DNA of 64,000 nucleotides, taken from assembly GCA_045660785.1 (NCBI GenBank), contig JAZREL010000062.1, positions 11,716 through 75,715 of the forward strand, read 5' to 3'. Each line of letters begins with the position of its first letter. Position 1 is the stretch's first letter. Position numbers and translations under genes: made by a program. Of the stretch, positions 9,226 to 47,302 are shown in pieces. Below the pieces are notes generated by a model. That model saw only the letters and a program-made list of their open reading frames with translations, was not told the DNA's origin and did no database searches. This DNA comes from Eubacteriales bacterium (GTDB taxonomy: Bacteria; Bacillota; Clostridia; Oscillospirales; CAG-272).

Positions 9226-9261
9226 TTTTCTCCTGATATAAAATAAAAAAGGAGATTTAAT

Positions 9262-10719: not shown

Positions 10720-10733
10720 GAAGGGACAAAGAA

Positions 10734-11933: not shown

Positions 11934-11944
11934 GGAGTTAGCTT

Positions 11945-12262: not shown

Positions 12263-12288
12263 TAATAATTAAAAGGAGAATAAAAACA

Positions 12289-12564: not shown

Positions 12565-12581
12565 TTTGAGGATTTTATAGT

Positions 12582-12854: not shown

Positions 12855-12953
12855 TATGCCATATTTGGCAAGCAATTAAGATTTTTAAAGCTTCGGCTTT
12901 GAAATAAACAAAACAAAAAATAAAAAATAACAATAAAACAGGAGGATTTTCAA

Positions 12954-13226: not shown

Positions 13227-13370
13227 TAATTAATAGAAGGAAGGCAATCTCAGTATCCAAAGGGCTTTGTGCCCTTTGGGTACTGCAAAAGAGCTTAAAG
13301 AAAAACGGTTGAGCTTTTTTGCAGTACGAGGCAATATGCAAAAGTAAGCATTATACGGAAGGAAATAAAA

Positions 13371-14027
13371 ATGGATATTTCTAAAGAACAAATAGCCGAA
13401 ATGGTAAGACGCACGCTTCTTGAAATGAGCGGCGAAGCAAAAATTGAAAATGCAAAGGGCGAAATTCCGATTGGCGTTTCAAACAGACATATACATCTGT
13501 CAAAGGGCGACCTTGAAACTCTTTTCGGCGCGGGCTACGAGCTTACCCCTATAAAGGAGCTTTCTCAGCCGGGGCAATATGCCTGCCGCGAGGTGCTCAC
13601 TATTATCGGCCCATCAATGCGCCCAATAGAAAACGTAAGGGTGCTTGGCCCTGTAAGAAAAGCATCTCAGGTTGAAATCTCGGCAACGGATTCATACGTT
13701 TTGAAGGTTAAGCCACCGGTAAGAGAATCGGGCAATATAAAGGACTCGGCTCCTATAAGAATTGTCGGCCCGAAGGGTGTTGTTGAGCTTAACGAGGGAT
13801 GCATAATTGCAAACAGACATATTCATATGTCACCCACTGAAGCCGAGGTGTTTGGTATTAAGGACGGTGACTACGTAGATATTGATGTAAACGGCAAGCG
13901 CAGAACGAGATGGTTTGACGTTCAGGTAAGAGTTCACAAGGACTTCCGCTTGGAAATGCACGTTGACACAGACGATGCAAACGCGGCGGGCATAGGCAAC
14001 GGGTTTACCGTAAATATAGTAAAGTAA
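13371..14027 (+). CDS. pduL: phosphate propanoyltransferase PduL with encapsulation peptide
   Basis: GVSNRHIHLS, LSQPGQYA, PVRESG, RHIHM, EMHVDTDDANA; N-terminal EQIAEMVRRTLLEM. Confidence 0.95.
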   Translation: MDISKEQIAEMVRRTLLEMSGEAKIENAKGEIPIGVSNRHIHLSKGDLETLFGAGYELTPIKELSQPGQYACREVLTIIGPSMRPIENVRVLGPVRKASQVEISATDSYVLKVKPPVRESGNIKDSAPIRIVGPKGVVELNEGCIIANRHIHMSPTEAEVFGIKDGDYVDIDVNGKRRTRWFDVQVRVHKDFRLEMHVDTDDANAAGIGNGFTVNIVK

Positions 14028-14043
14028 AAGCGAGGTAATAAAC

Positions 14044-14292
14044 ATGTTAAAGGGAATTATCAGAGGAAACATCGTTTCCACAAGAAAGCAAGAATCTTTA
14101 GTAGGCAGCAAGTTTATGGAGGTTCAGCTTATTAAAAACGGACAGTTCACAGACGAATATATAATAGCTATCGATTCCGTTGGCGCGGGTATCGGTGAGA
14201 CCGTTCTTATTACCACGGGAAGCTCAGCTCGCTTGGCATTACATAACACAAGCAGTCCTGCTGACGCGGTTATTGTCGGTATAGTTGACTAA
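14044..14292 (+). CDS. eutN: BMC pentamer (vertex) protein, EutN/PduN/CcmL family
   Basis: AIDSVGAGIGETVLI..GSSAR...DAVIVGIVD. Confidence 0.93.
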   Translation: MLKGIIRGNIVSTRKQESLVGSKFMEVQLIKNGQFTDEYIIAIDSVGAGIGETVLITTGSSARLALHNTSSPADAVIVGIVD

Positions 14293-14323
14293 GAAATAAA
14301 TGAATCCGCGCGTGACCTGAAAA

Positions 14324-14348
14324 GCGGGAGGGAGAACCCCTCCCCTAC
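14324..14348 (-). repeat. GTAG-type REP-like palindrome
   Basis: Minus strand reads GTAG-GGGAGGG-GTTCT-CCCTCCC-GC, in the eutN-pduS gap. Confidence 0.5.
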
Positions 14349-14401
14349 GAAGGTAATTTTTGGCGCGAATTCTTGGAAAATCATTTTGAAAGAGTGAAAA
14401 G

Positions 14402-15721
14402 ATGCAGGAACTTAAGAATTTAATGCGCGATTTTGGCGTCGTTGGCGCCGGAGGAGCGGGGTTCCCCTCTTACGCTAAGCTTGCGGAGGGGGCAGACCTC
14501 CTCCTTATAAACGGCTCTGAATGTGAGCCGCTTTTATACACCGACTACGTTATTTTGAAAAATGAGCTTACTATGGTTCTTTTCGGAATTTCGACGGTGC
14601 TTTTACATACGGGCATCCCAAAAGCTGTCTTAGCTGTAAAGGAGCACACGGCAAAAAAGCTCGGCTTTGAAAACGGCGAAAAGTTATCGGACAAAATTTT
14701 TGTCAAGGTTTTGCCAAACGTGTATCCGACGGGTGATGAAATAGGACTTATCTACGAAGCAACGAAACGTCTTGTAAAGCCGGGAAAATTGCCGATTACC
14801 GAGGGCGTTATAGTATATAACGTCGAAACGATGTATAATCTTGGCAGAGCGAAAAAGTTTTCTGAGCCCGTAAACAAAAAATATATCACAGTAGGCGGAG
14901 ATATCAAGAATCCAACCGTAATAAGAGTGCCGATTGGCGCAAAAATAGATGATATTTTCAAAATGCTTGATATAACGGTTGAGGATGGCTACACCGTGCT
15001 CGACGGCGGCCCCTCAATGGGTAAAATAGTAAATCCAAGAACGCACGCGATAACCAAAACAACAAAGGGAATATTAATTCTTCCCGATGACTCGCCTGCG
15101 GTTCTTTCTAAAAAAATAAATGAAAAAATGGCGATAGCAAGGGCTGAAACCGCTTGCTGTCAATGCACAAGATGCACCGATATGTGCCCAAGAAACTTGC
15201 TTGGCTACCCCTTGGAGCCACATAAAATGGTAAGAACTGCAATGGGTGTTGCCGAAATAATGCCCGAGATGGTAATAAGCGCGTCGCTTTGCTGCGGATG
15301 CGGCATTTGCGAGTCCCTTGCTTGCAGTCAAGGCATTTCTCCAAGGGCGGTAATTGCAAACTATAAGGAGCTTCTTGCAAAAAACAAGCTTCGCTTTAAT
15401 GGCTCCGACGAATATGAAGTAAGAAACGAAAGAGATTATAGAATGATTTCATCCGAAAAATGGATGAGCACGCTCGGCGTGACTAAATTTGATAAGGTTG
15501 CTGATTTCGGCGGCGAAATGAATGATTTTTCAAGAGTTGAAATTTCACTTTCAAGCCATATAGGCGCACCAAGCATTCCTTTGGTAAGCGATGGCGATTT
15601 CGTAAGCTCAAAGGATTTGATTGCAAAGGCACAGAACGGTCTTTCCTTGCCACAGCACGCTTCTCTTTCAGGCATGGTAACCGTAGGAAACGGTAAAATA
15701 ATAATTGATAAGGTAAGATGA
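14402..15721 (+). CDS. pduS: PduS-like Fe-S flavoprotein (RnfC-related, SLBB domain)
   Basis: GVVGAGGAGFPSY, NGSECEPLL, GGPSMG, CCQCTRCTDMCP and CCGCGICE clusters, HIGAP. Confidence 0.9.
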   Translation: MQELKNLMRDFGVVGAGGAGFPSYAKLAEGADLLLINGSECEPLLYTDYVILKNELTMVLFGISTVLLHTGIPKAVLAVKEHTAKKLGFENGEKLSDKIFVKVLPNVYPTGDEIGLIYEATKRLVKPGKLPITEGVIVYNVETMYNLGRAKKFSEPVNKKYITVGGDIKNPTVIRVPIGAKIDDIFKMLDITVEDGYTVLDGGPSMGKIVNPRTHAITKTTKGILILPDDSPAVLSKKINEKMAIARAETACCQCTRCTDMCPRNLLGYPLEPHKMVRTAMGVAEIMPEMVISASLCCGCGICESLACSQGISPRAVIANYKELLAKNKLRFNGSDEYEVRNERDYRMISSEKWMSTLGVTKFDKVADFGGEMNDFSRVEISLSSHIGAPSIPLVSDGDFVSSKDLIAKAQNGLSLPQHASLSGMVTVGNGKIIIDKVR

Positions 15722-15722
15722 A

Positions 15723-16268
15723 ATGTATAAGGCAATAGGCGTTATTGAATTAAAAAGCATACCAAAGGGCGTTGAGGCGGCAGATGCTGCACTTAAAAGC
15801 GCGGGAGTTGAAATGGTTTCGGCTCACCCCTCCTGCCCCGGTAAATATGAGATTGTGCTTACGGGCTCAATATCAAACGTGACGGCTGCAGTTTCTCACG
15901 TTACGTCAAAATTTGACGGCTACGTTATAGATTCAAGCGTTATGGGTAGAATTGAGGAGCAGGTTATAAAAGCACTCTTCGGCACTCAGACAGGAGAGCG
16001 CGAGGGCTCACTCGGACTTATTGAAACCTTCTCCGCGGCAAGCGCGATTAAAGCGGCAGATATAGCGGTAAAGACTGCAAGAGTAGAAATATACGACCTT
16101 CGCGTTTCAAGAGGTATGGGCGGCAAGGGTGTAGTAATGCTCACGGGTGAAATCGGCGACGTTACTGCGGCAGTTGAGGCAGGTGCAAATTATGCAAAGA
16201 GCGTTTCCACTCTTTCATCATATACAGTAATTGCGGCTCCGCATAAGGAGCTTTGGAAGCAAATGTAA
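15723..16268 (+). CDS. pduT: BMC trimer shell protein PduT-like
   Basis: Two BMC domains; SCPGKY pore cysteine motif; GMGGKG. Confidence 0.9.
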   Translation: MYKAIGVIELKSIPKGVEAADAALKSAGVEMVSAHPSCPGKYEIVLTGSISNVTAAVSHVTSKFDGYVIDSSVMGRIEEQVIKALFGTQTGEREGSLGLIETFSAASAIKAADIAVKTARVEIYDLRVSRGMGGKGVVMLTGEIGDVTAAVEAGANYAKSVSTLSSYTVIAAPHKELWKQM

Positions 16269-16289
16269 AAAATTCACGGAAAGGAGAAC

Positions 16290-18827
16290 GTGACTGTGGA
16301 AAACATTAAATTCATAATTGAAAAAAGCTCAAGAATACAAAAATTAGTAGATAATCTTTATGAAAAAATGCCCGAGATTGAAGCATCAAGAGGAAAGCTT
16401 GTAACAGAAAGCTACAAAATGACTGAAAATCTCCCGATAATCAAGCGCAGAAGCGCCGCATTTGCTCATATTTTAAGAAATATTCCGATAGTTATACGCG
16501 ACGGCGAGCTTGTTGTAGGAAGTGCAACGGTTGCTCCGCGCTCATGTCAGGTTTTCCCCGAATATTCATACGAGTGGCTACTTTCGGAGCTTGACACCGT
16601 ATCAACAAGAGCTGCTGACCCGTTTTACATAAGTGAAAAAACAAAATCGGAGCTTCGCGAAATTTATCCTTGGTGGCAAGGAAAAACCACGAGTGACCTT
16701 GCAAAAGCAAATATGTCACCCGAGGCGTACGAGGCGTTTACCGAGCATTCTGTGTTCACCCCCGGAAACTATTTTTATAACGGTATAGGACACGTTTGCG
16801 TAGATTACGGCAAGGTGCTTAAAATCGGTTACAGAGGAATTATAAAGGAAGCAGAGGATGCACTTTGCAAGCTTGACGTGTCGGATGGCGATTACGTTTC
16901 AAGAAGCAATTTCCTTTACGCGGTTATCGAAAGCTGTCAAGCGGTAATTGAATATGCGCGCAGATATAGCGCACTTGCACGCGATATGGCAAGCAAGGAA
17001 GCATGCCCTCAAAGAAAGCGCGAGCTTGAAATGATTGCGCGTAACTGTGCAAGAGTTCCCGAATCCCCCGCGACAAGCTTTTACGAGGCGTGCCAGTCAT
17101 TTTGGTTTATTCAGCTTCTTTTGCAGGTTGAATCAAGCGGACACTCAATCTCCCCGGGCAGATTTGACCAATATATGTATCCTTATTTTAAGAAGGATAT
17201 CGACGCGGGAAAAATCACCTACGAGCAGGCGCAAGAGCTTCTTGACTGCATTTGGGTAAAATTCAATGATATAAATAAGGTAAGAGATGCGGCGTCAGCA
17301 GACGGCTTTGCGGGCTACGGAATGTTCCAAAACCTCATCGTTGGCGGACAAAACGAGCACGGAATGGACTCAACAAACGACCTTTCGTATATGTGTATCG
17401 AAGCTGCTATGCACGTTCCGCTTCCACAGCCGTCAATTTCAATCAGAGTTTGGAACGGCTCACCCGAACCGTTACTTATCAAGGCAGCATCACTCACCCG
17501 TCTTGGCACTGGCTTGCCTGCATATTATAATGACGAAATAATTATTCCATCCATTATGGCAAGGGGACTTACCCTTGAGGATGCAAGAGATTATTGCATT
17601 ATCGGTTGTGTAGAGCCGCAAAAGGCAGGAAAAACCGACGGATGGCACGATGCGGCATTCTTCAATATGTGCCGCCCAATGGAGCTTGTATTCTCAAACG
17701 GCTACGACAAGGGCAAAAAAATAGGCCCCGACACTGGCGACGTTGCCGAAATGAAGACCTTTGAGGAGTTCTACGAAGCATACAAGACACAGCAAAGCTA
17801 TATGATAAAGCTGCTTGTAAATGCAAACAACGCAATAGATATGGCACACGCGGTAAGATGCCCACTTCCCTTCCAATCCTGTATGGTTGAGGATTGCATC
17901 GGCAGAGGAAAATCACTTCAAGAGGGCGGAGCTATATATAACTTCACAGGCCCGCAGGGCTTTGGTATAGCAAATAATACCGACGGCTTGGCGGCTATTA
18001 AAAAGCTCATATTCGAGGAAAAGAGATTTACCCTTTCAGAGCTTAAGGAAGCGTTAAGCGCAAACTTCGGCTACGGTGTGCAAGGGGCGCACGCGGAAAA
18101 GCTTGTTACTGAAATTGCAACCGAGCTTGTAAGACAGGGCGTTAGCGTAAACGAGGATGCAATTCGTATAATTTACGATGAGGTGACAAACCAAACCGCA
18201 CTCTCGACAGCGCAAAAATCAAGATATAAGGAAATTAAGCGACTTATCGAGGAGGAAGCTCCTAAGTACGGAAACGATATTTACGACGTTGATATGCTTG
18301 CCAGAGACGTAGCCAACAGCTACACAAAGGAAGTTGAAAAATATAAAAATCCAAGAGGCGGTATTTTCCAAGCGGGTCTTTACCCCGTATCGGCTAACGT
18401 GCCGCTTGGCGCATCAACGGGCGCAACTCCCGACGGACGACTTGCATATACTCCCTTGGCAGACGGCATAGGCCCCGCCTCGGGCAGAGATATAAAGGGC
18501 CCAACTGCAACGGCAAACTCCGTTGCTAAGCTTGAGCAGGGCGTTGCATCAAACGGAACGCTTCTTAACCAAAAGTTCCATCCGTCAGCGCTTGAGGGAA
18601 TGAGCGGCCTTTCCAAGTTCGTTGCCCTTATTCGCTCATACTTTGACCAAAAGGGTATGCACGTTCAGTTTAACGTTGTAACTAAGGAAACCTTGATTGA
18701 CGCGCAAAACAATCCCGAAAAATATAAGACCCTTGTTGTAAGAGTTGCGGGATATAGCGCACTGTTCACAACGCTTTCGCGCTCACTTCAGGACGATATT
18801 ATAAACAGAACCGAACAGGGTTGGTAA
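16290..18827 (+). CDS. glycyl radical enzyme, B12-independent 1,2-propanediol dehydratase
   Basis: RVAGYS glycyl loop, IIGCVEP Cys loop, NGIGH, SSGHSIS, WHDAAF; GYGMFQN and LYPVSAN have the Phe/Val of propanediol-type rather than the Tyr/Ser of glycerol-type enzymes; BMC plus aldolase context. Confidence 0.88.
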   Translation: MTVENIKFIIEKSSRIQKLVDNLYEKMPEIEASRGKLVTESYKMTENLPIIKRRSAAFAHILRNIPIVIRDGELVVGSATVAPRSCQVFPEYSYEWLLSELDTVSTRAADPFYISEKTKSELREIYPWWQGKTTSDLAKANMSPEAYEAFTEHSVFTPGNYFYNGIGHVCVDYGKVLKIGYRGIIKEAEDALCKLDVSDGDYVSRSNFLYAVIESCQAVIEYARRYSALARDMASKEACPQRKRELEMIARNCARVPESPATSFYEACQSFWFIQLLLQVESSGHSISPGRFDQYMYPYFKKDIDAGKITYEQAQELLDCIWVKFNDINKVRDAASADGFAGYGMFQNLIVGGQNEHGMDSTNDLSYMCIEAAMHVPLPQPSISIRVWNGSPEPLLIKAASLTRLGTGLPAYYNDEIIIPSIMARGLTLEDARDYCIIGCVEPQKAGKTDGWHDAAFFNMCRPMELVFSNGYDKGKKIGPDTGDVAEMKTFEEFYEAYKTQQSYMIKLLVNANNAIDMAHAVRCPLPFQSCMVEDCIGRGKSLQEGGAIYNFTGPQGFGIANNTDGLAAIKKLIFEEKRFTLSELKEALSANFGYGVQGAHAEKLVTEIATELVRQGVSVNEDAIRIIYDEVTNQTALSTAQKSRYKEIKRLIEEEAPKYGNDIYDVDMLARDVANSYTKEVEKYKNPRGGIFQAGLYPVSANVPLGASTGATPDGRLAYTPLADGIGPASGRDIKGPTATANSVAKLEQGVASNGTLLNQKFHPSALEGMSGLSKFVALIRSYFDQKGMHVQFNVVTKETLIDAQNNPEKYKTLVVRVAGYSALFTTLSRSLQDDIINRTEQGW

Positions 18828-18929
18828 GACTGAGAGGGAAACACCTTAAGGCACAAACATAAACCACAAAAAACAATGAACTTTGTTTTTCTGTCACCGC
18901 TTGAAAAATAAGGTTGAAAAACTACGTTT

Positions 18930-19122
18930 TTCTTCTTAATTGTGGTTTATTATCGCCGATTTTTACTCTACCGTACTAAGTACGCCGACGTGAAAAAAAT
19001 CGACGATTTCTGCTCTTAATCTGTCCCCCTCGGCTACGTTCTACAGAAATATAGTGCTGCGCACATTATAACGCTTGCGCGAATTATAGCTCGCAAGCTC
19101 GCATTATAACGCTTGCGCGAAT
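18930..19122. repeat. intergenic palindromic/repeat-rich insert
   Basis: CGTACTAAGTACG palindrome inside an imperfect inverted repeat (ATCGCCGATTTTT / AAAAATCGACGAT), then a 21-bp direct repeat CATTATAACGCTTGCGCGAAT in two copies. Confidence 0.5.
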
Positions 19123-19148
19123 AAAAAATGAGAAGGAGGAAAACCACG

Positions 19149-19928
19149 GTGTCAGATATAAAAGGCAGAATATTTAATATTCAACGCTTTTCAATTCACG
19201 ACGGGCCGGGAATAAGAACAATTGTCTTTTTCAAGGGCTGCTATATGAGATGTGCGTGGTGCTGTAATCCCGAATCTCAAAACAAAGAAATTGAAACGAT
19301 TATAGAAAAAGGCAGAGAAAAAACGGTTGGCTACGACGTTAGGGTATCTGACGTTATGCCCGAAATTTTAGCCGACCTTCCCTACTATAAAAGAAGCGAG
19401 GGTGGCGTTACCCTTTCAGGTGGCGAGGTGCTTTGCCAAGCGGATTTTGCAAGGGAGCTATTAATTGCCTGCAAGGAGGCAGGGCTTCACACAGCCGTGG
19501 AGTCAGCCGCGTCCGCACCGATTTCTGAAATAGAAAAAATCCTTCCTTACGTTGATTTATACCTTATGGACATAAAGCATATGGACAGCGCAAAGCACAA
19601 GGAATATACGGCGGTTGGCAACGAGCGCATACTTGAAAATGCAAGAAAAATAGCCGAAAGCGGAGTTGAGCTTATAATAAGAACGCCCGTCATCCCCGGC
19701 TTTAACGACACACCCGAGGAAATAAAAGCAATTTCGCATTTTGCAAAAACCTTGCCGGGAGTAAAGGAGCATCACCTGCTTCCCTATCACCGCCTCGGCT
19801 CGGACAAATACCAAGGGCTTGGCAGAAAATATTCCCTGCCCGAAATTTTGCCGCCGACCAAGGAAAAAATGGAATATCTTTTGTCTTATGCAGAAACATC
19901 GGGGCTTAGATGTAAAATTGGAGGATAA
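19149..19928 (+). CDS. glycyl-radical enzyme activating protein (radical SAM)
   Basis: HDGPGIRTIVFFKGC, CxxxCxxC (CYMRCAWC), GGVTLSGGE, LLPYH; GTG start at 19149 after AAGGAGG (ORF track 19128). Confidence 0.93.
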   Translation: MSDIKGRIFNIQRFSIHDGPGIRTIVFFKGCYMRCAWCCNPESQNKEIETIIEKGREKTVGYDVRVSDVMPEILADLPYYKRSEGGVTLSGGEVLCQADFARELLIACKEAGLHTAVESAASAPISEIEKILPYVDLYLMDIKHMDSAKHKEYTAVGNERILENARKIAESGVELIIRTPVIPGFNDTPEEIKAISHFAKTLPGVKEHHLLPYHRLGSDKYQGLGRKYSLPEILPPTKEKMEYLLSYAETSGLRCKIGG

Positions 19929-36228: not shown

Positions 36229-37068
36229 TCACTCGCCGCCGTTGCTTTTGAGTGCTTCGGTTGCGACTTGCAACTCTTCCCCTTTTGGCACTAAAATTGT
36301 TATTTCGGTGTATGAATCGTTCTCTACCTTGCGCCGCTTTATTTTAATCCCGCTGTTTTCAACGGATGAAATTGCGCGGTTTATTGCGTCGTAAAAGCAC
36401 TCAATTGACTTAAAGGTGTGCTTTTTAACTTCCTTTGTGCTTGGATTTTCCTTGGAGAGTAGCTTGTCAACGTGTGCTTCCGATTCTGATACGTTTAGCT
36501 CCTTACTGATTATATCTTCAAGCGCCTTTTCGCGCAAATTATCGTCTTTTATTCGTAAGAGTGCTCTTGCGTGACGTTCGCTTAAATCGGCTCTTAAAAT
36601 CATTGCGCGCTCCTCTCTTGATAGGCGCAATAGGCGCAGCTTGTTGGCTATGTATGATTGGCTAACGCTCAACTTTTCCGCAATTTTTTCCTGTGTTTGC
36701 TTGTGAATATCTATGAGCGCTTCTATTGCCTCTGCCTCCTCGAAAATGGTTAAATCCTCGCGCATTAGGTTCTCAATTATTGCCATTTCGGCGCTCTTTT
36801 CTTCGCTTGCTGATGCCACCACGCACGGCACACGTGTCATTCCGATTTCCTTGGCGGCACGTAGTCTTCTTTCCCCTGAAATAAGCTCGTATTCGCCACC
36901 GATTTTACGCACTGAAAGCGGCTGAATTATGCCATAATGCCTTATGCTGTCGGCAAGCTTTATAATACCCTCGTCACGAAAGGATTTGCGTGGTTGGGAA
37001 GGGTTTGGCGTTATTTTTTCAACCTCTAAATACAAAATTTGTTCGTTTTCTTGCTTTTCTTCCTTCAT
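36229..37068 (-). CDS. noc: ParB paralogue, Noc-like (nucleoid occlusion family)
   Basis: PNPSQPRKSF, LISGERRLRAA, SQSYIANKLRLL, SERHARALL; lies upstream of parA-parB as noc does in Bacillota. Confidence 0.8.
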   Translation of the reverse strand: MKEEKQENEQILYLEVEKITPNPSQPRKSFRDEGIIKLADSIRHYGIIQPLSVRKIGGEYELISGERRLRAAKEIGMTRVPCVVASASEEKSAEMAIIENLMREDLTIFEEAEAIEALIDIHKQTQEKIAEKLSVSQSYIANKLRLLRLSREERAMILRADLSERHARALLRIKDDNLREKALEDIISKELNVSESEAHVDKLLSKENPSTKEVKKHTFKSIECFYDAINRAISSVENSGIKIKRRKVENDSYTEITILVPKGEELQVATEALKSNGGE

Positions 37069-37619: not shown

Positions 37620-37651
37620 AAAGCCGCACCCTCGTGCAGGATGCGGCTTAA
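37620..37651 (-). terminator. hairpin downstream of the capsid gene
   Basis: AAGCCGCACCCT-cgtgc-AGGATGCGGCTT; reads into TTTT on the minus strand. Confidence 0.6.
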
Positions 37652-37787: not shown

Positions 37788-38630
37788 TTATGCGTACTTA
37801 ACGTTTACGTTGATAATTTCCTTAGGTCTTACCACCTTGCCGTCGAAAAGAGCATAGCCCTTAACTGCATCGGCAAATGATTTCTCGGGGCGGTATGCCT
37901 CGGTGTGAGTAAGTGGGTTGACAAACGCGATAGCGCGCTTAGTTCTGATCATGATATTATCAACTGCACCTGAGTCGGTCTTTGCAACGTTGTTTGAAAG
38001 CTTTACCGTTACGTTGCCGTAGGTTGCGATCTTGCCGTTTTCGAGCATTTGGCTGTTGTTTGTGTCGTTTGACACGTACGCCTGCTTGAAGAGCTTGTAG
38101 AAGCGCGGTGAAACCGTAACTGTGATACCGCTTGCCATGTTGACGTCGTTTTCCTGAAGCTTCTCGATTGCATCGTCGAGAATTGAGAGCACGTTCTCCT
38201 TGGTTACGAGTGTTGGCGCTGATGTGAGCGCGTTAACGGATGAGTCAAGCACCATATTGGCGATGTACTTGTCCATTTCGTTTGCAAGACCCTCGCTTGT
38301 TTCTGCGCTGAGCGCATCCATCAAGCCGCCGATTGCTTGCGCCTTGTCAATGTCACCAACCTTGTAGTTGAAGTATCTGATTTGATTTACGTTTAAGATA
38401 ACGGATGTGTCGCTTACCTCCTTGGCACTGTCGATCTCTCCGCTTGCGTTTTCACGCGTGATTGATTTAATGGTGGGCTTGCCAACGCCGAGAATGTGAA
38501 CGCTGTCGCCCTTTTTGGAAACGTCGCCCTCGTATTGGCGGTTGCAGTCCTCAACGAACACACAAGCGCGCTCGAGCTCTCTGTTGATTGATTCTGACCA
38601 AACTGATGGGATGAAATTTGAATATGCCAT
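37788..38630 (-). CDS. phage major capsid protein (P22 gp5-like, HK97 fold)
   Basis: MAYSNFIPSVWS, NRQYEGDV..KGDSVHI, YFNYKVGDIDKAQ, TEAYRPEKSFADAVKGY..FDGKVVRP; AAGGAG RBS before ATG 38630; follows terminase-portal-scaffold. Confidence 0.85.
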   Translation of the reverse strand: MAYSNFIPSVWSESINRELERACVFVEDCNRQYEGDVSKKGDSVHILGVGKPTIKSITRENASGEIDSAKEVSDTSVILNVNQIRYFNYKVGDIDKAQAIGGLMDALSAETSEGLANEMDKYIANMVLDSSVNALTSAPTLVTKENVLSILDDAIEKLQENDVNMASGITVTVSPRFYKLFKQAYVSNDTNNSQMLENGKIATYGNVTVKLSNNVAKTDSGAVDNIMIRTKRAIAFVNPLTHTEAYRPEKSFADAVKGYALFDGKVVRPKEIINVNVKYA

Positions 38631-38781
38631 AATGTTTTTCTCCTTGCATAATTTTGCGAAGGGCAAGGGAGTGGCGCCAACTATTGCCACAAACTTAATT
38701 TACGCCTAAAGGGCTGACTTTTTGGCTAAATGCTGGCGCGTGTTGCTAAATGACATGAAAATCATAATAAATCCGCTTATA

Positions 38782-39465
38782 TTACCATTTTTGTTGGCTT
38801 TTTCTTATAATATCGTAATTTTTCGAGATTTGCTCGGCACTCATTTTCAAAACCTGCTCTTTTGTGAAGAAAACCTCGCTTGTTTTCTCGCTTGAAGCAA
38901 GAGAGCCGGGGGAAACGAGCTTGTTTTGCAGCGAAACGAGGGATTTTTTGGCAAAATCGCCCTCGATTGCGTTGATTAGGCGCAAATAATTAGTGTAAAG
39001 GTCTGAAATCGATAAATTTTGACCGTTATGGCTTGAAAACAGGCAGAAAAGCTCATCCTTGCGCAGTTTTTTCAAAGAAACACTCGGAAATAGTCTTGAA
39101 AATACTAAATTTTCGTCTTCGCTCAAGGTGGATTGCGATGAGTTTTCCACGCTTTGTTGATTGTCAATTTCAGACAAGGGGTCAAGTATATTTGTTGACG
39201 TGTCTGACTTTTGAATTTTGGAAAGTTTTGCTTCGTCTGTAAAATTAATAGTATTATTTATACTATTTTGCTTGATTTCTGCCTTTTTTTCCGCTTGAGA
39301 GGAGGTGTCATCGTCAAACGTGCATTTTTCCTCACCTGAATTGGGAAAATTCAAAGGATTTTCAGTGTCACCTGTGTCGTTTTTGACATCGATTGCTTCG
39401 ATTTTTGCGCCTGATGTGTCTGAATTCTTCGTGTATTGAGAAATTTTTTCTTTACCTTGCATCAT
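38782..39465 (-). CDS. putative capsid scaffolding protein
   Basis: Between portal and capsid; C-terminal SPGSL...FFTKEQVLKMSAEQISKNYDIIRKSQQKW typical of the gene preceding such capsids; low-complexity N-terminus. Confidence 0.65.
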   Translation of the reverse strand: MMQGKEKISQYTKNSDTSGAKIEAIDVKNDTGDTENPLNFPNSGEEKCTFDDDTSSQAEKKAEIKQNSINNTINFTDEAKLSKIQKSDTSTNILDPLSEIDNQQSVENSSQSTLSEDENLVFSRLFPSVSLKKLRKDELFCLFSSHNGQNLSISDLYTNYLRLINAIEGDFAKKSLVSLQNKLVSPGSLASSEKTSEVFFTKEQVLKMSAEQISKNYDIIRKSQQKW

Positions 39466-41164
39466 TGTACCTCGTTTGCCCCTTTAGCTTTGCAAGCTCT
39501 TCCTTGAGCGAGGTAAGCTCTGATTCCTTTTCGCGGCGAATTTGCTTAAGAATTTCTTCTTTATTTGTAATTGCGGACTCGGGATAAGCGCGAATGTAGG
39601 TTTCAAGCGAGATGCTTCCGTTCTTTAAGCAGGTGTCAAGCAATGAAATATCCGACGCAAGAGATGATTTTGTGCCGCCAACCGCCTCAACGTAAACCTC
39701 GAAGCACGCGCCTTCGTACTCGTTTGAGGAAAATTCATCATACTTTGAGCATTCTTCGCTGTTTTCGACGTTTACTTTATCGATGTAAGCACGCTTAAAG
39801 TAAAAATGTCTTAAAAACTGTGCGACAACCATGCCCTGCTTGCGCTTTGTGTGCCAAAACGAGCTTCTTAATTCGTCAATCGGCACTTGCGCCTGTGATT
39901 GTAGGTAAGCAATTGCCGCACCTGAAAGGTTTGAGCTAAACGCATCGCCCGTCATAACGCTTGATGCGCCGCTCACCGTCCTTGTCATTTCCTCAAGGGC
40001 AAGTGTTATATTCATTGGTGAGCTTGAAAGCTCGCCCTCGGGCATTCTCTTAATTCCCTCGCCCGTGCCTGAAAAATCAATCAATACCTGACCGGGCACG
40101 TTCGAGATTTTTTGGTTGCCGAGTGCGTTTGGCAGGGCGATATATTTGCCCCACGCGCATTGTTGCGCGTTCAGTAGGTTCATCGCGATGTTGAAATTGA
40201 TTGCCTTTTGGTTTGGAATCAACCCTTCAACCTCGCCCATACCGTATATTGAGTGTTCTTTTCTTTCGTACTGCCCGCAAACAATCGGATAAAGCTGCTT
40301 GATTTTATTGCGTTTGTGCGAAAAATGATTGAAGCTTGGGTTAATACCGCTTTCGTTAGCGCTTTGCTCGTTTTTGGCGTTTGATATTTGAGCTAAGAGT
40401 TGATTCATCTCTTTACTGTCGGGAATAATCTTAAACGGCTCGGTCACGGTGTTATATTTCGTTTGTCTTTCGCAATATATCTCGCCGTCCATTTTGAAAT
40501 AGCGCGTTAAGAGAAGCATCGTTTCCTTTTCGAGTGAAATTTCACCCTTCCCCTCACAGGATTCAAGCAAAATTGAGTTAATCAGCTTCGTGTCGGTGAT
40601 GCCTGAAATAAGCTTCTTGACTACAACCTGTGAAGCAATTATAATCCAATCCTGCTTTTGCTCGTCAATCTCCTGCGGATTTGAAAAGAAGACGTTAAGC
40701 GGGTCGATGAGCTCGCACGAAAGAGCGCCAAGCTCGCCGCTTTCATTGGAAATTTCCTCCGAGTCCCAATAATAATGGAAGAAGTACGAGCCCTTTTTGA
40801 TTGCGTCGTCGATTGCTCGTCTGTCTAGCTCATCCTGACCCATTTCGCGGAAGACGCTTGCGGCAAAGCTGTTGAATTTGTCTACGTTTATAAGAGGTGA
40901 GTACGATTTATACTGTATTCTTACGGGAGTAGAGAGAATTGCGCCCTTTTTTGCACGGCAAATCATTTTTACGATATTCACCACAGGGCGCGGTAAATTT
41001 TTTGTGCTTTCCGTTGGCCTTGGCCACTGTCTGCCCTCGTAAAAGTCAACGCACTCCGGTATTTTTTCACGCAAACCCGTCATTGCTTGATTTTCGAGCG
41101 CTTCATTGTAAAGGCGGTAGCATTTTGTTGTCTCACGACTTAAATTTTCTTGCCGTTGAGCCAT
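39452..41164 (-). CDS. phage portal protein (P22-like)
   Basis: FYEGRQW...LPRPVVNIVKMI, IDPLNVFF.NP, SIYGMGEVEGLIPNQKAIN, SGAAIAYLQ; position after terminase. Confidence 0.8.
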   Translation of the reverse strand: MAQRQENLSRETTKCYRLYNEALENQAMTGLREKIPECVDFYEGRQWPRPTESTKNLPRPVVNIVKMICRAKKGAILSTPVRIQYKSYSPLINVDKFNSFAASVFREMGQDELDRRAIDDAIKKGSYFFHYYWDSEEISNESGELGALSCELIDPLNVFFSNPQEIDEQKQDWIIIASQVVVKKLISGITDTKLINSILLESCEGKGEISLEKETMLLLTRYFKMDGEIYCERQTKYNTVTEPFKIIPDSKEMNQLLAQISNAKNEQSANESGINPSFNHFSHKRNKIKQLYPIVCGQYERKEHSIYGMGEVEGLIPNQKAINFNIAMNLLNAQQCAWGKYIALPNALGNQKISNVPGQVLIDFSGTGEGIKRMPEGELSSSPMNITLALEEMTRTVSGASSVMTGDAFSSNLSGAAIAYLQSQAQVPIDELRSSFWHTKRKQGMVVAQFLRHFYFKRAYIDKVNVENSEECSKYDEFSSNEYEGACFEVYVEAVGGTKSSLASDISLLDTCLKNGSISLETYIRAYPESAITNKEEILKQIRREKESELTSLKEELAKLKGQTRYNDAR

Positions 41165-41298
41165 TCGTCAACAACCTCCTTGTATGAAATTTCAGCCACA
41201 GGGTCGGTTGTTTTTGTTTTTTCGAGGCTATTCACTCTTTCCTTTAGCGAATAAACCTCTTTGATTAGTTTTTGAAGGTTTTTCTTTGAAATAAACAT
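41140..41298 (-). CDS. 52-aa hypothetical protein coupled between terminase and portal
   Basis: MFISKKNLQKLIKEVYSLKERVNSLEKTKTTDPVAEISYKEVVDEWLNGKKI*; starts 1 nt after the terminase stop and overlaps the portal start; below the ORF-track cutoff. Confidence 0.6.
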   Translation of the reverse strand: MFISKKNLQKLIKEVYSLKERVNSLEKTKTTDPVAEISYKEVVDEWLNGKKI

Positions 41299-41299
41299 T

Positions 41300-43081
41300 T
41301 TACCACTCCATGTAGTTTTCAGATTGCAAGGGGAAGGGAGTGAAATTTTGCTTCAAAAAGTCAGTGGTGGCATTGGTTGCTTTTGGCTTGTGCTCATAAT
41401 CAATGCCGATAAAGTGTGCAATTGCACTTGCCATAACGAGGTCATCGTGGCTTCCGTCAGCTGCGGCACTTTTTCCGTCGCTTCTTTTTACAAAGGTAGT
41501 CATTTCGTAAAGCGTTTGCCTGTCCGTTTCAAGGTAAATACATTCGCGCATTACCGAAACAAGGTTTGAAATGATAATTGGACGGGTAAGCGCGCTTGTG
41601 ACAAACCCGTAGGATTCAAGCGCGTCGTCGGCTGACTGTCTTTTTGCGTGCGAGTACAGATTTTCGTACCCAAGAGAGCGCAAAACCCTGATGGGGTGTC
41701 TTGAATAGTTTGTTTCAACTCCGATAAGGGCGGTGTTATAATGCTTGCCAAGGCAATAAAGCTGATGTGCAAACAAATCCTCATCTATATTTTTAATATG
41801 TAGAGTTGCAACACAACGCGAGGTTGTATTGTCGATAACCTTTGCAGAAAAGTAGTCCTGACCTGTGCCTGCTGTGTCCGCACCGATAACGTACGGCTTG
41901 ATAAGCCCGTTTGAATTTTCGTTTGGCGCCTCAACTATCGAGATGTAGCCGTTTTCGCTTTCCTCAAATTTAATATCGGTAAGCGTTGTTTTGTATGACC
42001 CGATCTCGCCGCTTGGCAAATATACAGGTAGCGGCTTGATTTTATAGGAGAAATATCCGCGCCTTGATTTTATACTGAAGGTGCTTAGATAATCCCCAAT
42101 TTTTTCCTTGTCAAAAATGCAGTCCCCACTTGAAACGAATGCTTCCTCAGGCGTGCATGGATATTCCTGCCGAATAGAGCTTTTATCAATATAAGAATGA
42201 TATTTCTTTGCATACCAAGCAAGCTGGTCCTTGGTTAAGCCCTTTTTTTCAAGCATCTTAAGTCGGTTATTTAGCCACGTGTCGCCACTTTTTAAGTATT
42301 CGTGCTCGTTTGAGGTGTATTCCTTGGTTTTGTACCACTCGTAGAAAAGATTGTGACAAGCGCCACTGTCCCAAAGCTCCTTTGACTCATTAAAGCCGTT
42401 TGCCGTCGTTTCAAAAATGCAAATTGCATCGCTTGTTGCCGCCTCGCCTATCGATTTTTGCAAATCCTTTATGGGGCACTTGAAAAATGCCGCCTCGGAA
42501 TAGTGAATGAACGAAAGGGTGCGGCTTCTGCCGACGTTTGAGGTTGCCGAGGCAATTCTCCAAGACGAATTTAGCTTGTCAAAGTATAGCTCGTTAACGG
42601 AATTGAATTTTTCCGTCGGGCGTAGCCGCCTTGGCAAGCTGTTATACATTGCTTTTGCCTTATCAACGAAAATTGCCTTGGTGTTGTCGTCACGGTCGGC
42701 AAGCGTAAACCCCGAAAAATTGCGACGGACAACTGCGTAAGCAAGCATAAGCGCCGTAATAAGTGAGGTAAATCCCTGTTGTCTTCCTTTTAATATGAAA
42801 TACGGTTTTTTGCTACACTGTGTCTGTAATTTAGACAAAAAGTCGCGTTGCACGTCGTTTAAAAAGAACGGAACCGTCTCTCTTTTCTTGTCAACAATAG
42901 AGAAGCACGCCTCGATTAAAAGCTCGGGATGCTCCTTGATTTTTTCTCGCAAGCTTTCCGTGTCAAGAATCCTGTCGGCAATCGCGGCGCACAGTGCTTG
43001 GTCCTTTGATATGTCCCTGCTGACTTCCCAAAGCTCACGCCGTTTTTCCACCATTTGGTTTATTGAAATTTCTTCTGCCAT
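41300..43081 (-). CDS. phage terminase large subunit
   Basis: ILKGRQQGFTS (Walker A), FIHYSEAAF (Walker B), FETTANG, QEYP..PEEAF, YVIGADTAG and HDDLVMA nuclease motifs; AAGGAGG RBS before ATG 43081. Confidence 0.92.
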   Translation of the reverse strand: MAEEISINQMVEKRRELWEVSRDISKDQALCAAIADRILDTESLREKIKEHPELLIEACFSIVDKKRETVPFFLNDVQRDFLSKLQTQCSKKPYFILKGRQQGFTSLITALMLAYAVVRRNFSGFTLADRDDNTKAIFVDKAKAMYNSLPRRLRPTEKFNSVNELYFDKLNSSWRIASATSNVGRSRTLSFIHYSEAAFFKCPIKDLQKSIGEAATSDAICIFETTANGFNESKELWDSGACHNLFYEWYKTKEYTSNEHEYLKSGDTWLNNRLKMLEKKGLTKDQLAWYAKKYHSYIDKSSIRQEYPCTPEEAFVSSGDCIFDKEKIGDYLSTFSIKSRRGYFSYKIKPLPVYLPSGEIGSYKTTLTDIKFEESENGYISIVEAPNENSNGLIKPYVIGADTAGTGQDYFSAKVIDNTTSRCVATLHIKNIDEDLFAHQLYCLGKHYNTALIGVETNYSRHPIRVLRSLGYENLYSHAKRQSADDALESYGFVTSALTRPIIISNLVSVMRECIYLETDRQTLYEMTTFVKRSDGKSAAADGSHDDLVMASAIAHFIGIDYEHKPKATNATTDFLKQNFTPFPLQSENYMEW

Positions 43082-43123
43082 TTTTCCTCCTTTCCCTTGC
43101 AAGAGTATTATTGCATAAAAAAA

Positions 43124-43268
43124 GCGGTACCGAGCGGTACAGTTTCGCCAAAAAATGAAAAAATTCTTTGTCACAAGGATTTGCAGCTCTCCCTCCGTCT
43201 GCTTTGCAGCCACCTCCCTCAAAGAAGGAGGCATGGGCGGTACCGAGCGGTACAATTTCACCAAAAAA
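43124..43268 (-). promoter_or_regulatory. duplicated direct-repeat element upstream of terminase
   Basis: GCGGTACCGAGCGGTACA(G/A)TTTC(G/A)CCAAAAA at 43124 and 43237; the proximal copy sits at the -35 position of a TG-C-AATAAT box (43107-43115, minus strand). Confidence 0.6.
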
Positions 43269-43364: not shown

Positions 43365-43634
43365 ATGAAGGCGGTAGTAACTGTAATCGGTAAGGACTCT
43401 GTCGGCATTATTGCTGACGTTAGCGTGGAGTGCGCAAAGCACAACGCAAATATTGTTGATATCACACAAAGCGTACTCAAGGATTATTTTGCAATGATTA
43501 TGCTTGTTGAAATAGAAAAAATGGAAACGGAATTTGCCGTTTTCCAAAAGGAGCTTGCCTCCCTTGGCGAAAAGCGCGGACTTGATATACGCGTAATGCA
43601 CGAGGAAATTTTCAATTCAATGCACCGTATTTAA
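43365..43634 (+). CDS. ACT domain protein (UPF0237)
   Basis: AVVTVIGKD..GIIA.VS...NIVDITQ...EEIFNSMHRI. Confidence 0.92.
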   Translation: MKAVVTVIGKDSVGIIADVSVECAKHNANIVDITQSVLKDYFAMIMLVEIEKMETEFAVFQKELASLGEKRGLDIRVMHEEIFNSMHRI

Positions 43635-43643
43635 GGGGATATT

Positions 43644-45002
43644 ATGGTAAACATTAACGATATACTTGAAACTGTCAATATGATAAAGCAGGAAAATCTT
43701 GATATTCGTACTGTAACTATGGGTATCTCGCTTTTCGACTGCATAAGCGACGACCAAAAGCGTCTTGAAGCAAAAATTTACGATAAAATCACAAAGAGTG
43801 CCGAAAATCTTGTTTCCACAGCAAACGAGCTTGAAGCAAAGTACGGCATTCCGATTATAAATAAGAGAGTTTCCGTAACCCCAATTTCCTTGGTTGGTGC
43901 AGCTTGCGATAAGGACGGCTTCGTTCGCTTGGCACACGTGCTTGAAAGAGCGGCAAACGAGGTTGGCATAAACTTTATCGGCGGCTACGGCGCGCTTGTT
44001 CAAAAGGGAATGACAAAGGGTGCGGCAAATCTTATAGACTCAATTCCCGAGGCGCTTGCAACCACGACAAAGGTTTGCTCAAGCATAAACGTGGCAAGCA
44101 CAAAGGCGGGCATTAATATGGATGCCGTTGCGCGTATGGGTCAAATAATGAAGGAAACGGCGTATCTTACTCGCGATAATGATTCAATCGGCTGTGCAAA
44201 GCTTGTTGTCTTTGCAAATATTCCTGAGGATAACCCCTTTATGGCAGGCGCAATTCACGGCATAGGTGAGCCGGACACCGTTATAAACGTTGGTGTTTCA
44301 GGCCCCGGCGTTGTTGCTTCCGCAATTAAAAGGGAGGGCTTTTGCGACTTTTCGCACCTTGCCGACGTAATAAAAAAGACTGCGTTCAAAATCACGCGCG
44401 TCGGTCAGCTTATTGCTTACGAGGCATCAAAGAAGCTCAATACCCCGTATGGAATTATTGACCTTTCACTTGCACCTACCCCCGCAGTTGGTGACTCCGT
44501 TGCAAGAATCCTTGAAAATATGGGTCTTGAAAGATGCGGCACTCACGGCACGACAGCGGCGCTTGCAATGCTTAACGATGCGGTTAAGAAGGGCGGCGTT
44601 ATGGCTTCGTCCCACGTTGGCGGCTTAAGCGGCGCGTTTATTCCCGTTTCGGAGGACGCAGGTATGATTGAGGCGGCAGAAATGGGCGCACTCAGCATTG
44701 AAAAGCTCGAGGCGATGACCGCGGTTTGCTCCGTTGGTCTTGATATGATTGCCGTTCCGGGGGACACAAGTGCATCAACACTTAGCGGAATTATTGCAGA
44801 CGAAATTGCAATCGGTGTAATTAACAATAAGACAACGGCTGTGCGCTTAATTCCCGTTTACGGAAAGGGCGTTGGCGAAAGCGTTGAGTTTGGCGGCCTT
44901 CTTGGACACGCTCCTATTATGAAGCTCAGCGAATATTCAAGCGAGGACTTTATTGCGCGCGGAGGAAGAATTCCTGCGCCGATCCATAGCTTAAGAAACT
45001 AA
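43644..45002 (+). CDS. UPF0210/DUF711 (PFL-family annotated) protein
   Basis: [48 protein letters not shown]. Confidence 0.92.
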
Positions 45003-45060
45003 TAAAATACGCGACCCCGTGTCGGTAATTATCATATTATCGCGCGGAAAAGGAGAAAAT

Positions 45061-46329
45061 ATGAAAAAGCTTGATACAATATGTGTGCAAGGCGGCTACA
45101 AGCCAAAAAGTGGAGAGCCACGCGTTGTGCCGATAGTTCAAAGCACTACCTATTATTATGAAAAGGCAGGCGAAATGGCAGACCTTTTCGACTTAAAGAG
45201 TGAGGGTTATTTCTATACTCGCTTGGCAAACCCAACGGTTGACGCGTTTGAAAAGAAGCTCTGTGAGCTTGACGGCGGCGTTTTGGGAATTGCAACTGCC
45301 TCGGGTATGAGTGCAACGCTTCTTGCTATACTTAATATTGCGGGCGCAGGCGATAATATCGTTGCCTCACGCGCAATTTACGGCGGTAGCTACAACCTAT
45401 TCTCAGTTACATTGCCTAAATATGGAATTACGACAAGGTTTTTTGACCCCGACGACAGCGAGGAGGAGATTGACAAGCTTGTTGACGATAAAACAAGAGC
45501 AATCTTTACCGAAACTATTGCAAATCCAACAATTGTTGTGCTTGATTTTGAAAAAATCGCAAGAATTGCAAAGCGCCACAAGGTTCTTTTTATGGTTGAC
45601 AACACCTTGGTGACACCTGTGCTTTGCCGTCCTCTTGATTTTGGCGCAAACATTGTTATTTATTCATCATCAAAGTATCTTGACGGTCACGCGGTTGCAC
45701 TCGGCGGCTGTATCGTTGATGGCGGTAACTTTGATTTTAACGCAACCGACAGATATCAAGAGTTTTTAGTGCCTGACGAAAGCTACCACGGTCTTGTTTA
45801 TGCATCTCTTGGCAAAACCGCGTTTGGCGTAAAGTGCAGAGTTCAAATGATGCGCGACCTCGGTGCTATTATGAGCCCTGAAAACGCTTTCCTTACAAAT
45901 CTTGGTATGGAAACCTTGGCGCTTCGTATGGAAAGACATTGTCAAAATGCGAAAAAGGTTGCAGAATTCTTATCAAACCATCCAAAGGTTGAGTGGGTGC
46001 TTCATCCATCGCTCGCGGACAATAAATATAACGCGCTTGCAAACAAATATATGCCAAACGGACAAGGCGGTATGATGAGCTTTGGCGTTAAGGGCGGCTG
46101 TGAAAAAGCATCTAAATTTATGGAAGGCCTTGAAATGATTGCTATCGTAACTCACGTTGCAGATAGCCGCAGCTGTGTTTTGCATCCTGCATCAACCACA
46201 CACCGTCAGCTTTCAAGCGCTGACCTTGAAGCGATTGGCATTAAGGACAACTTGGTGCGCCTCTCAGTTGGAATTGAGAACGCGGACGACATAATCGCTG
46301 ACCTCCAAAACGCTCTTGACAGAGTGTAA
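45061..46329 (+). CDS. metY: O-acetylhomoserine sulfhydrylase (PLP)
   Basis: FYTRLANPT, ASGM, VDNT, SSSKYLDGH (PLP Lys), HPASTTHRQL; ATG 45061 after AAAGGAG. Confidence 0.92.
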   Translation: MKKLDTICVQGGYKPKSGEPRVVPIVQSTTYYYEKAGEMADLFDLKSEGYFYTRLANPTVDAFEKKLCELDGGVLGIATASGMSATLLAILNIAGAGDNIVASRAIYGGSYNLFSVTLPKYGITTRFFDPDDSEEEIDKLVDDKTRAIFTETIANPTIVVLDFEKIARIAKRHKVLFMVDNTLVTPVLCRPLDFGANIVIYSSSKYLDGHAVALGGCIVDGGNFDFNATDRYQEFLVPDESYHGLVYASLGKTAFGVKCRVQMMRDLGAIMSPENAFLTNLGMETLALRMERHCQNAKKVAEFLSNHPKVEWVLHPSLADNKYNALANKYMPNGQGGMMSFGVKGGCEKASKFMEGLEMIAIVTHVADSRSCVLHPASTTHRQLSSADLEAIGIKDNLVRLSVGIENADDIIADLQNALDRV

Positions 46330-46393
46330 AAATACGAATTATCGACACAGGGTGGACTTTTTTGTCGGCACACTGTGAAAAAAGGAGAAAGAA

Positions 46394-47302
46394 ATGCCCA
46401 TTATTATTCCAAAGGACATTCCTGCATATTCAACGCTTCTTAACGAGAATATTTTCGTTATGAATCAAGAAAGAGCAATGACACAGGACATCCGCCCTAT
46501 CGAAATTGCCATTCTTAATCTTATGCCCACTAAAATTGAAACGGAAACTCAGCTGATACGCCTTCTTTCCAACTCACCGCTTCAAATTAAGGTTACGCTT
46601 ATCGGTACGGAGAGCTACGTAGGCACACATACTCCGCTTGGTCACCTTCAAAGATTTTACAAAACCTTCTCCGAGGTGAAAAATCAACACTTTGACGGTA
46701 TGATTATCACGGGTGCGCCTGTTGAAATGATGGAGTTTAGCGAGGTTAAGTATTGGAGCGAGCTTACGGAAATTTTAGATTTTGCCAACACAAACGTGCA
46801 AAGCACAATCTTTATTTGTTGGGGCGCGCAGGCGGCAATGCATTATTATTACGGTCTTGATAAACAAATTTTGCCAAAGAAGCTCTTTGGTGTTTTCAAG
46901 CACAAAAAGTTTGTAAACTTCGACCCGATTCTTAAGGGCACGGATGAGGAGTTTTATATGCCGCACTCCCGTCATACAACCGTTGATATAGAGTCAATTC
47001 GCAAGGTTGATGATTTGCTTATTCTTGCCGGCTCAGACAAAATCGGCGCTTCAGTTGTGCGCTCACGCGATGGCAGACGAATATTTCTTATGGGTCATAT
47101 GGAATACGATAAGGATACCTTAAAAAACGAGTATTACCGTGACCTTGGCAAGGGGCTTGACATCGACCCGCCCGAGAATTATTTCAAGGACGAGGAAAAA
47201 ACAAAGGTTGTTCCAAATTGGTATTCCGTTGCTAATTTGATTTATTCAAATTGGCTCAACTACTACGTATATCAAATGACACCGTACGATTGGAAATCTT
47301 AA
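46394..47302 (+). CDS. metA: homoserine O-acetyltransferase (MetA/HTS family)
   Basis: QDIRP..IAILNLMP, ITGAPVE (Glu typical of acetyl specificity), ICWGAQ, PHSR, GHMEY. Confidence 0.93.
   Translation: MPIIIPKDIPAYSTLLNENIFVMNQERAMTQDIRPIEIAILNLMPTKIETETQLIRLLSNSPLQIKVTLIGTESYVGTHTPLGHLQRFYKTFSEVKNQHFDGMIITGAPVEMMEFSEVKYWSELTEILDFANTNVQSTIFICWGAQAAMHYYYGLDKQILPKKLFGVFKHKKFVNFDPILKGTDEEFYMPHSRHTTVDIESIRKVDDLLILAGSDKIGASVVRSRDGRRIFLMGHMEYDKDTLKNEYYRDLGKGLDIDPPENYFKDEEKTKVVPNWYSVANLIYSNWLNYYVYQMTPYDWKS

Follow-up and report, generated by a model that had tools for sequence, protein, structure and literature searches.

This work concerns a 64,000-nucleotide stretch (the window) of contig JAZREL010000062.1 from an Eubacteriales bacterium of the CAG-272 lineage, and a phage head operon which lies in it and codes for a large terminase (TerL), a portal, a probable scaffold and a major capsid protein. 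We think that this operon is probably one part of a host-owned, vertically inherited gene set derived from a podovirus, which is split over separate loci, is governed by one ArpU-like activator and builds short-tailed particles containing host DNA, i.e. a system similar to a gene transfer agent (GTA). New in this work is that tail, activator and replication loci appear, on the evidence of DNA motifs, to be tied to the head operon through one signal. Coordinates given without a contig label refer to the window, G000 is the genome from which the window comes (a 1.94-Mb assembly, 82% complete), and C, G and L numbers denote contigs, genomes and fetched loci, respectively.

The five minus-strand open reading frames (ORFs) of the head operon are intact, overlap or are 1-152 bp apart, and follow each other in the order TerL, 52-aa ORF, portal, scaffold, capsid (Table 1). 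The first-pass annotation had described an intact five-ORF head module between housekeeping genes, and this description held: the ORFs are uninterrupted, a purine-rich stretch resembling a ribosome-binding site precedes all five, a hairpin closes the operon, and the flanks are noc/parAB genes on one side and met/ACT genes on the other. Three parS 16-mers, parA and parB lie beyond the noc-like gene. The GC content of the operon, overall and at third codon positions, is like that of the host. The interval 43107-43258 is promoter region and not TerL coding sequence. In G014 the head promoter carries two inserts of the dispersed hairpin repeat and three copies of the signal, which suggests that the repeat targets or duplicates the signal site. 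The ORF list contains no protease gene within the head operon, and the capsid protein had no match in NCBIfam. Among GenBank phages only distant matches were found (capsid at most 35% identity, TerL at most 28%), and the TerL proteins of prophages of the same genus are 56-69% identical to the domesticated TerL. The closest capsid relatives that have a name come from uncultured Clostridia, Eubacteriales and Oscillospiraceae assemblies, many of them labelled as coming from ruminant hindgut or faeces.

The earlier annotation had also stressed that small terminase, connector, tail and activator genes were absent, which is true of the window but not of the genome: they were found on contigs C65 and C29. 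Tail proteins of the prophages described below as class B match C65 of G000, where a nine-gene operon codes for TS (a putative small terminase, so named for its gene position), a head-tail adaptor, a nozzle, two proteins in the position of fibre genes, a small ORF and three membrane proteins. The predicted fold of the adaptor (202 aa, predicted local distance difference test (pLDDT) 91) is like that of podovirus head-tail adaptors (best match 9d80, E 2e-6). The nozzle (824 aa, pLDDT 87) had no sequence match in the PDB and no named Atlas family, and was assigned by its fold, which resembles podovirus nozzles (9k09, E 2e-17; T7 gp12) with template modelling scores of about 0.4-0.5. The tktAB genes stand directly after the tail block in 13 of 20 fetched relatives; of the others, four are cut and three differ. 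In G000 the same 39 bp stand, without a single difference, before TerL and before TS.

These results bear on a proposal of the first-pass annotation, according to which the heads would take their tails from unrelated phages. Capsid-forming phage satellites, which such a head-only machine would resemble, have an integrase and their own replication genes, lack tail genes and are patchily present. Although the window is indeed free of tail genes, the genome codes for an adaptor, a nozzle and a small terminase of the system itself, behind a signal identical to that of the head operon; the system has no integrase or att context, occupies a fixed site and follows the host tree. We therefore regard the proposal as largely refuted and highly improbable.

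A TerL match was obtained in 27 of the 36 other genomes of the genus, and in one of 24 genomes of other families, where it was partial. Forty of the 43 distinct TerL places were fetched and sorted by gene content. Class A comprises 20 head-only places in 19 of the 36 genomes. The synteny suggested as a check by the first-pass annotation was found: of the 19 class A genomes, 14 have ACT/DUF711 upstream and 15 have the noc-like gene downstream, the remaining flanks being ended by a contig edge or occupied by different genes on one side. Over about 20 species of a single clade, head, tail and activator loci each remain at their own chromosomal position. TerL has Walker A and B motifs together with the coupling and acidic nuclease motifs, and all of these are kept in the aligned class A copies. 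G019 has a single unsplit module, in which TS, TerL, portal, scaffold, capsid, adaptor and nozzle genes stand in a row behind the same late signal. Class C consists of five unsplit modules at another fixed site. Class B comprises 13 prophage-type places, in most of which a small terminase with helix-turn-helix (HTH) domain was called; three class B places were traced far enough to reveal integrase, repressor and replication genes. One further place, outside these classes, is without a called TerL. At the head and tail loci, on the other hand, host genes are found on both sides and there is no integration or replication module. The one tyrosine recombinase match in G000 is on another contig, and no prophage integrase was found in this genome. 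Both this arrangement and the vertical inheritance of structural genes fixed in the chromosome are features of GTAs.

The shared signal was searched for with a matrix built from 30 sites of relatives, G000 excluded. In G000 six sites scored above 39 bits, the next one reached 11, and three shuffled genomes stayed below 10. The six sites precede the head operon, the tail operon, two replisome-organiser-like initiator genes (C7 and C22), a decayed initiator copy (C69) and a barnase-barstar gene pair. A strict signal pattern, which missed several class A genomes with diverged signals, occurred in 16 of 37 genomes, all belonging to the class A clade or being G019, and the reversed control gave none. 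Head and tail signals of the same genome differ on average at 2.6 of 30 bases, compared with 9.4 of 30 between genomes and 6.7 of 30 when the tail signal of the nearest relative is taken. The own head-tail pair was closer than the nearest relative in 14 of 19 cases, with three ties and two cases in which it was worse (G025 was excluded because its contig starts too near TS); since related genomes are not independent, no P value is given. G026 has a far-diverged version of the signal, the same at its head and tail loci.

Phylogenetic trees were made with FastTree, leaving out the second head locus of G026. In the rpoB tree of 30 genomes (midpoint rooting) class A forms one clade with G019 beside it; class C and the seven genomes that lack the system make up two further clades. 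The class A head proteins are monophyletic and separate from the prophages. The number of common tree splits was 13 of 16 for head and tail, 9 of 13 for head and rpoB, 12 of 15 for tail and rpoB, and 7 of 14 for activator and rpoB, whereas shuffling gave a mean of about 0.2. The proposed comparison of structural genes with the host spoke for vertical descent. The ratio of nonsynonymous to synonymous divergence (dN/dS) pointed to purifying selection: between G000 and G014 it was 0.02-0.35 over 14 genes, with dS like that of neighbouring host genes. Many other genome pairs were saturated. Pairs of initiator genes gave dN/dS values of about 0.2. We also considered that the locus might be a slowly decaying prophage remnant or an assembly chimera. 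A few broken copies do exist, and the second G026 head locus (L060, on G026:C31) is probably a mis-binned contig, because it is near-identical to G009 including the host flanks although the rpoB genes of the two genomes are far apart. However, the same flanks recur in 14-15 independently assembled genomes, synonymous divergence comes close to 1 or exceeds it while dN/dS is much lower than 1, and the promoters co-vary. Synteny and selection data refute decay or chimerism for the clade, and we give this explanation next to no weight. In its general form, the first-pass idea of a host-maintained, GTA-like machine gained support as regards fixed place, vertical descent and split layout.

The candidate for the regulator of these loci is an orphan gene on C29. 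Its product matches TIGR01637 (E 5e-7, under the cut-off), phrog_36 and phrog_248 and, weakly, Sigma70_r4. The gene was found in 26 of 36 genomes of the genus, with a ProX-like neighbour in 19 of the 20 class A clade relatives that had a match. A repressor-like HTH gene adjoins it (within a 1.5-kb flank) in five of 20 clade relatives, not including G000; the one such neighbour that was scanned matched phrog_4 and a UmuD-like domain. In phages the activator homologue stands directly before terS with direct repeats between the two, as seen in prophages and in nine of nine IMG/VR contigs with both genes called; the signal was absent from two IMG/VR contigs which had the activator but no called TerS. 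According to the part of PMC3753634 available to us, late activators of the Ltr type (RinA/ArpU/LtrA) are small proteins with a C-terminus like sigma-70 region 4, bind direct repeats located between the activator gene and terS, and in the phage are under a CI-type repressor. In contrast to these phages, the activator is an orphan here, and its putative site is found at several unlinked host loci, including replication genes which lack it in prophages. In the mechanism that we propose, the activator would bind the direct repeat and switch on the head, tail and other signal-bearing loci together. A sigma-A-like promoter and a leader hairpin are conserved before the activator gene (C29:25400-25664, L075) and in L099-L108, a subclade without neighbouring repressor.

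TS is the first gene of the tail operon and codes for a protein of about 108-121 aa. It matched in 29 of 401 genomes across the order. Among the 29 TS loci other than our own, the scanned downstream protein was TerL in 22 of 22; of the other loci, two had a TerL-type P-loop by eye and five had none. TS stands directly before TerL in G019. It is single-copy in 22 of 36 genomes of the genus (32 of 50 in the whole genus) and was found in none of 24 others. The C-terminus is KFED[LF] as in prophage TerS, whereas no HTH match was found in TS and prophage TerS has an HTH. Comparison of TS with solved structures gave no meaningful match, and an assignment to DUF5681 was a weak lead (15% of members in otherwise unnamed Atlas clusters). 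We infer from gene position and C-terminus that TS works with the head-operon TerL, because its sequence is not detectably related to that of class B TerS (hhalign probability 0.4). Proheads would then be filled by TerL guided by TS, a short tail would be added, and chromosomal DNA would leave the cell in particles. Since TS lacks an HTH, pac specificity may be missing, allowing TerL to begin cutting without a pac site and to pack headfuls of chromosome.

The initiator genes may contribute by amplifying chromosome regions for packaging, similarly to the run-off replication of the Bartonella GTA. Of 22 initiator genes 13 have a signal above 20 bits, one a weak variant and eight none; the latter include both mapped prophage copies. 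Because most of the initiators carry the signal and the mapped prophage copies do not, early genes appear to have been placed under the late promoter after capture. The two initiator genes C7 and C22 contain iteron-like repeats, which are weak and do not count here as origins. A 320-aa host gene matched the C7 initiator over short stretches only; we ascribe this to a C-terminal motif common to both and disregard it.

In class B prophages and their viral kin (G005:C8, G036:C43, G031:C21 and IMG/VR contigs L396-L415) the genes for TerL, portal, capsid, adaptor, nozzle and membrane proteins correspond to those of the domesticated loci, follow one another in an identical order and have the same type of signal. 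The prophages are roughly 36 kb long. Unlike the domesticated loci they possess an integrase, a repressor, a replication block and a TerS with HTH; their portal and scaffold are longer, and their tail genes are followed by two large genes. These two follow the last membrane gene and code for a coiled protein of 290-390 aa and an ART-PolyVal protein of 2300-2700 aa. As polyvalent proteins have been proposed, in the part of PMC5512222 available, to be packaged and injected with phage DNA, the pair is likely an ejection or DNA-delivery set. One or both genes were present in eight of eight prophage and viral controls. The coiled gene occurs in 10 of 37 genomes, always near the giant gene and in each case in a genome with a class B place. 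Three genomes (G004, G014, G028; L279, L280, L281) have lone genes for proteins of 646-677 aa which resemble the middle of the giant protein and stand among host genes; the one scanned contained ART-PolyVal and MuF_C. These genes and a 779-aa piece in G034 lack the signal and were not counted in the system.

Several observations speak against our interpretation. In all 19 domesticated loci (of classes A and C and in G019) whose sequence extends past the last gene of the tail block, host genes come next, and neither the coiled nor the giant gene was found in G000 or in well-assembled relatives free of prophages, such as G003 (96%) and G012 (93%). No lysis gene with a signal was found in the 82% complete G000. 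TS has no detectable kinship with the prophage protein whose role it would fill, the replication genes are patchy and stand at several different sites, and the activator scores 30 bits against an ArpU cut-off of 43.1. A sister clade of seven genomes is without the system. TerL is broken in G018, portals are broken in L193 and L203, and a stop interrupts TS in G446 and the G034 match to TS. Finally, prophage pairs give similarly low dN/dS values; because they too are under purifying selection, our argument for domestication is based on location, phylogeny and the loss of mobility.

Release and delivery are the weak steps of the GTA interpretation, because both large genes that follow the tail genes in the phages are gone and we recognised no endolysin in the domesticated loci. 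The scans run did not show one in the G005 prophage either; in G000 they gave no Amidase_2 and one M23 gene, which is without signal. The three membrane proteins of the tail operon occupy the place of holin- or endolysin-like genes in related modules, and the host encodes transpeptidases, Spo0A and ComEC. Uptake by the recipient through ComEC would be one possibility.

The loss of both large genes in 19 of 19 domesticated loci would also fit a non-transducing particle, PBSX-like in outcome, which packs DNA and adsorbs but, lacking the ejection proteins, delivers no genes. Such a particle would serve as a weapon or carry toxins, and the barnase-barstar and RHS cassettes linked to the signal would provide its cargo or toxins that are released along with it. 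The three conserved membrane proteins of the tail operon fit this explanation, and so does the position of the signal, which stands before barnase-barstar at six of nine distinct loci (in G000 at C62:7481-8310 (L290), left of the window, before a barnase-like RNase and barstar) and before two RHS-repeat genes of G029 (L296:2-1396 and L297). However, barnase matches were obtained in only eight of 37 genomes and at different sites, the G000 gene has one in-frame stop, and the genes of G019, G032 and G034 are without signal. The barnase-like gene must be mobile, since it is 99% identical in the distant genomes G010 and G020. The N-terminal cysteine/histidine stretch of the protein, which belongs to no matched family, is reminiscent of MuF. 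No PF04233-type MuF match was found. As TerL has also retained its ATPase and nuclease motifs, we consider this explanation unlikely.

A helper-dependent or defensive role can be envisaged as well. The module might be cross-activated by temperate phages or complement them, borrowing their ejection and lysis functions, or might flood an infection with host-DNA or defective particles. Related prophages with the missing genes are present in 10 of 37 genomes of the genus, and with the host matrix the signals of some prophages reach 15-41 bits. However, the score of most prophage terS regions is negative, the host has its own activator, signal variants change together across unlinked loci, and the module is intact in genomes without such a prophage, which makes this role doubtful indeed.

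More tentatively, and with a modest chance of being right, the whole can be seen as a host regulon that grew out of a phage late promoter: a captured activator would drive a split podovirus particle, rewired initiators and exchangeable toxin-immunity cassettes, host DNA would be moved without ejection proteins by way of recipient competence, and the phage family would have been tamed at least twice in the genus, each time with an HTH-less TerS and loss of the same two genes. In class C (L066-L070, L169, L175, L229) this phage family seems to have been captured a second time, as an unsplit module with a fixed site of its own; the module has an HTH-less TerS, which is the class B protein with its HTH lost, a scaffold of 117-120 aa, its own signal variant, an orphan activator and orphan initiators.

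It is instructive to compare the GTA-like system proposed here with known ones. RcGTA of Rhodobacter capsulatus has a siphovirus-type tail and GafA control, whereas here we find podovirus tail genes and an Ltr-type activator. In other respects the two are alike: in the part of PMC6854486 available, RcGTA is described as a multi-locus domesticated phage with a TerS of about 107 aa, which lacks the N-terminal HTH and has a conserved C-terminus. FpGTA of Faecalibacterium, as far as the available part of PMC12946183 goes, is likewise from gut Clostridia and has two separated operons, a podovirus-type nozzle, a small terminase without evident DNA-binding domain, and structural loci free of replication and integration genes. 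It differs in its N4-gp56 family capsid and adjacent Prp protease (here a phrog_267/8e16 capsid and no protease). Its TerS stands with the head genes, whereas here it is the first gene of the tail operon, and operon II of FpGTA codes for a holin and an endolysin, while we recognised no endolysin here. That part of PMC12946183 mentions neither an activator nor a shared promoter. Because the FpGTA capsid belongs by its own annotation to another family, the present system seems to be a separate capture. It must be noted that the comparison was made by annotation: FpGTA particles have been demonstrated (PMC12946183, part available), while the present system is known from its genes alone and can be called GTA-like for a layout similar to those of FpGTA and RcGTA. 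The Bartonella GTA, in the accessible portion of bioRxiv 10.64898/2026.07.08.737213, also combines structural loci with separate phage-derived replication genes; here several lone initiators are found, at sites which differ between lineages, and most of them have no helicase loader next to them. The same portion of this 2026 preprint lists candidate GTAs of Clostridia, one of which has a transcriptional activator, and describes for other families a peak of coverage over phage replication genes. Our literature search, which covered neither bioRxiv supplements nor most subscription papers, yielded no paper that describes this system or a GTA driven by ArpU.

Similar arrangements were seen elsewhere in the order. 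In family f25 (genera g60 and g143; L383-L386, L390) homologues of a short TS, TerL, nozzle and portal genes stand at a fixed site, after a gene that is ychF-like by sequence, and the stretch has no capsid gene; these loci are another split system. L387, L388 and L389 (f18, f20) contain compact TS-TerL-portal-capsid-adaptor-nozzle modules among host genes, with holin-like and M23-like genes by eye, and are further GTA candidates.

Table 1. Coordinates of the head operon, its surroundings and the unlinked loci in G000
Feature	Position	Strand	Remarks
Large terminase TerL, 593 aa	41300..43081	-	phrog_2, E 7e-20; start at 43081
52-aa ORF	41140..41298	-	No family; conserved, present in prophage relatives too
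P22-like portal, 570 aa	39452..41164	-	phrog_156, E 7e-33; PF16510 P22_portal above cut-off
Probable scaffold, 227 aa	38782..39465	-	Named from position; no family match
Major capsid protein, 280 aa	37788..38630	-	phrog_267, E 7e-38; PDB 8e16 gp6, E 6e-33
Terminator-like hairpin at operon end	37621..37649	-	-22.8 kcal/mol over 50-nt stretch
Late-promoter signal	43107..43145	-	TACCGC direct repeat 10 bp apart, T run, -10-like hexamer
Partial second copy of the signal, farther upstream	43237..43258	-	
Dispersed hairpin repeat between the two signal copies	43190..43238	.	Similar stretches on C16, C21, C22, C41, C69
Noc-like ParB paralogue, host flank	36229..37068	-	TIGR04285, 277 bits, under cut-off 315
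Host flank: ACT-sized ORF, DUF711, metY-like, metA	43365..47302	+	
Tail operon, nine genes	C65:16991-25473		Between dxs + surface-protein gene and tktAB
Putative late activator (orphan), 131 aa	C29:25665-26060		ArpU-like by profile, under cut-off

Two further observations concern the surroundings of the head operon. In five related genomes (L035, L036, L040-L042) a gene of about 670 aa belonging to no known family lies between ACT and the head promoter. At 7242-19928 the window contains a gene cluster, named from sequence, for a bacterial microcompartment, which includes a glycyl-radical enzyme and the activase of that enzyme.

Few GTAs are known outside Alphaproteobacteria. Gut virome work has pointed to GTA-like packaging in many Clostridia, and in the part of the report available the underlying genes are not given (PMC12946183). 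A single genus offers here structural loci, an activator, an operator, an unsplit relative and living phage relatives. Because the whole wiring can be read within one genus, one can order and test the steps of domestication, i.e. loss of integrase, of pac recognition and of two large post-tail genes, splitting, and rewiring of replication genes. The signal together with the short TerS provides a handle to search for systems of this kind, and further families of the order appear to contain some.

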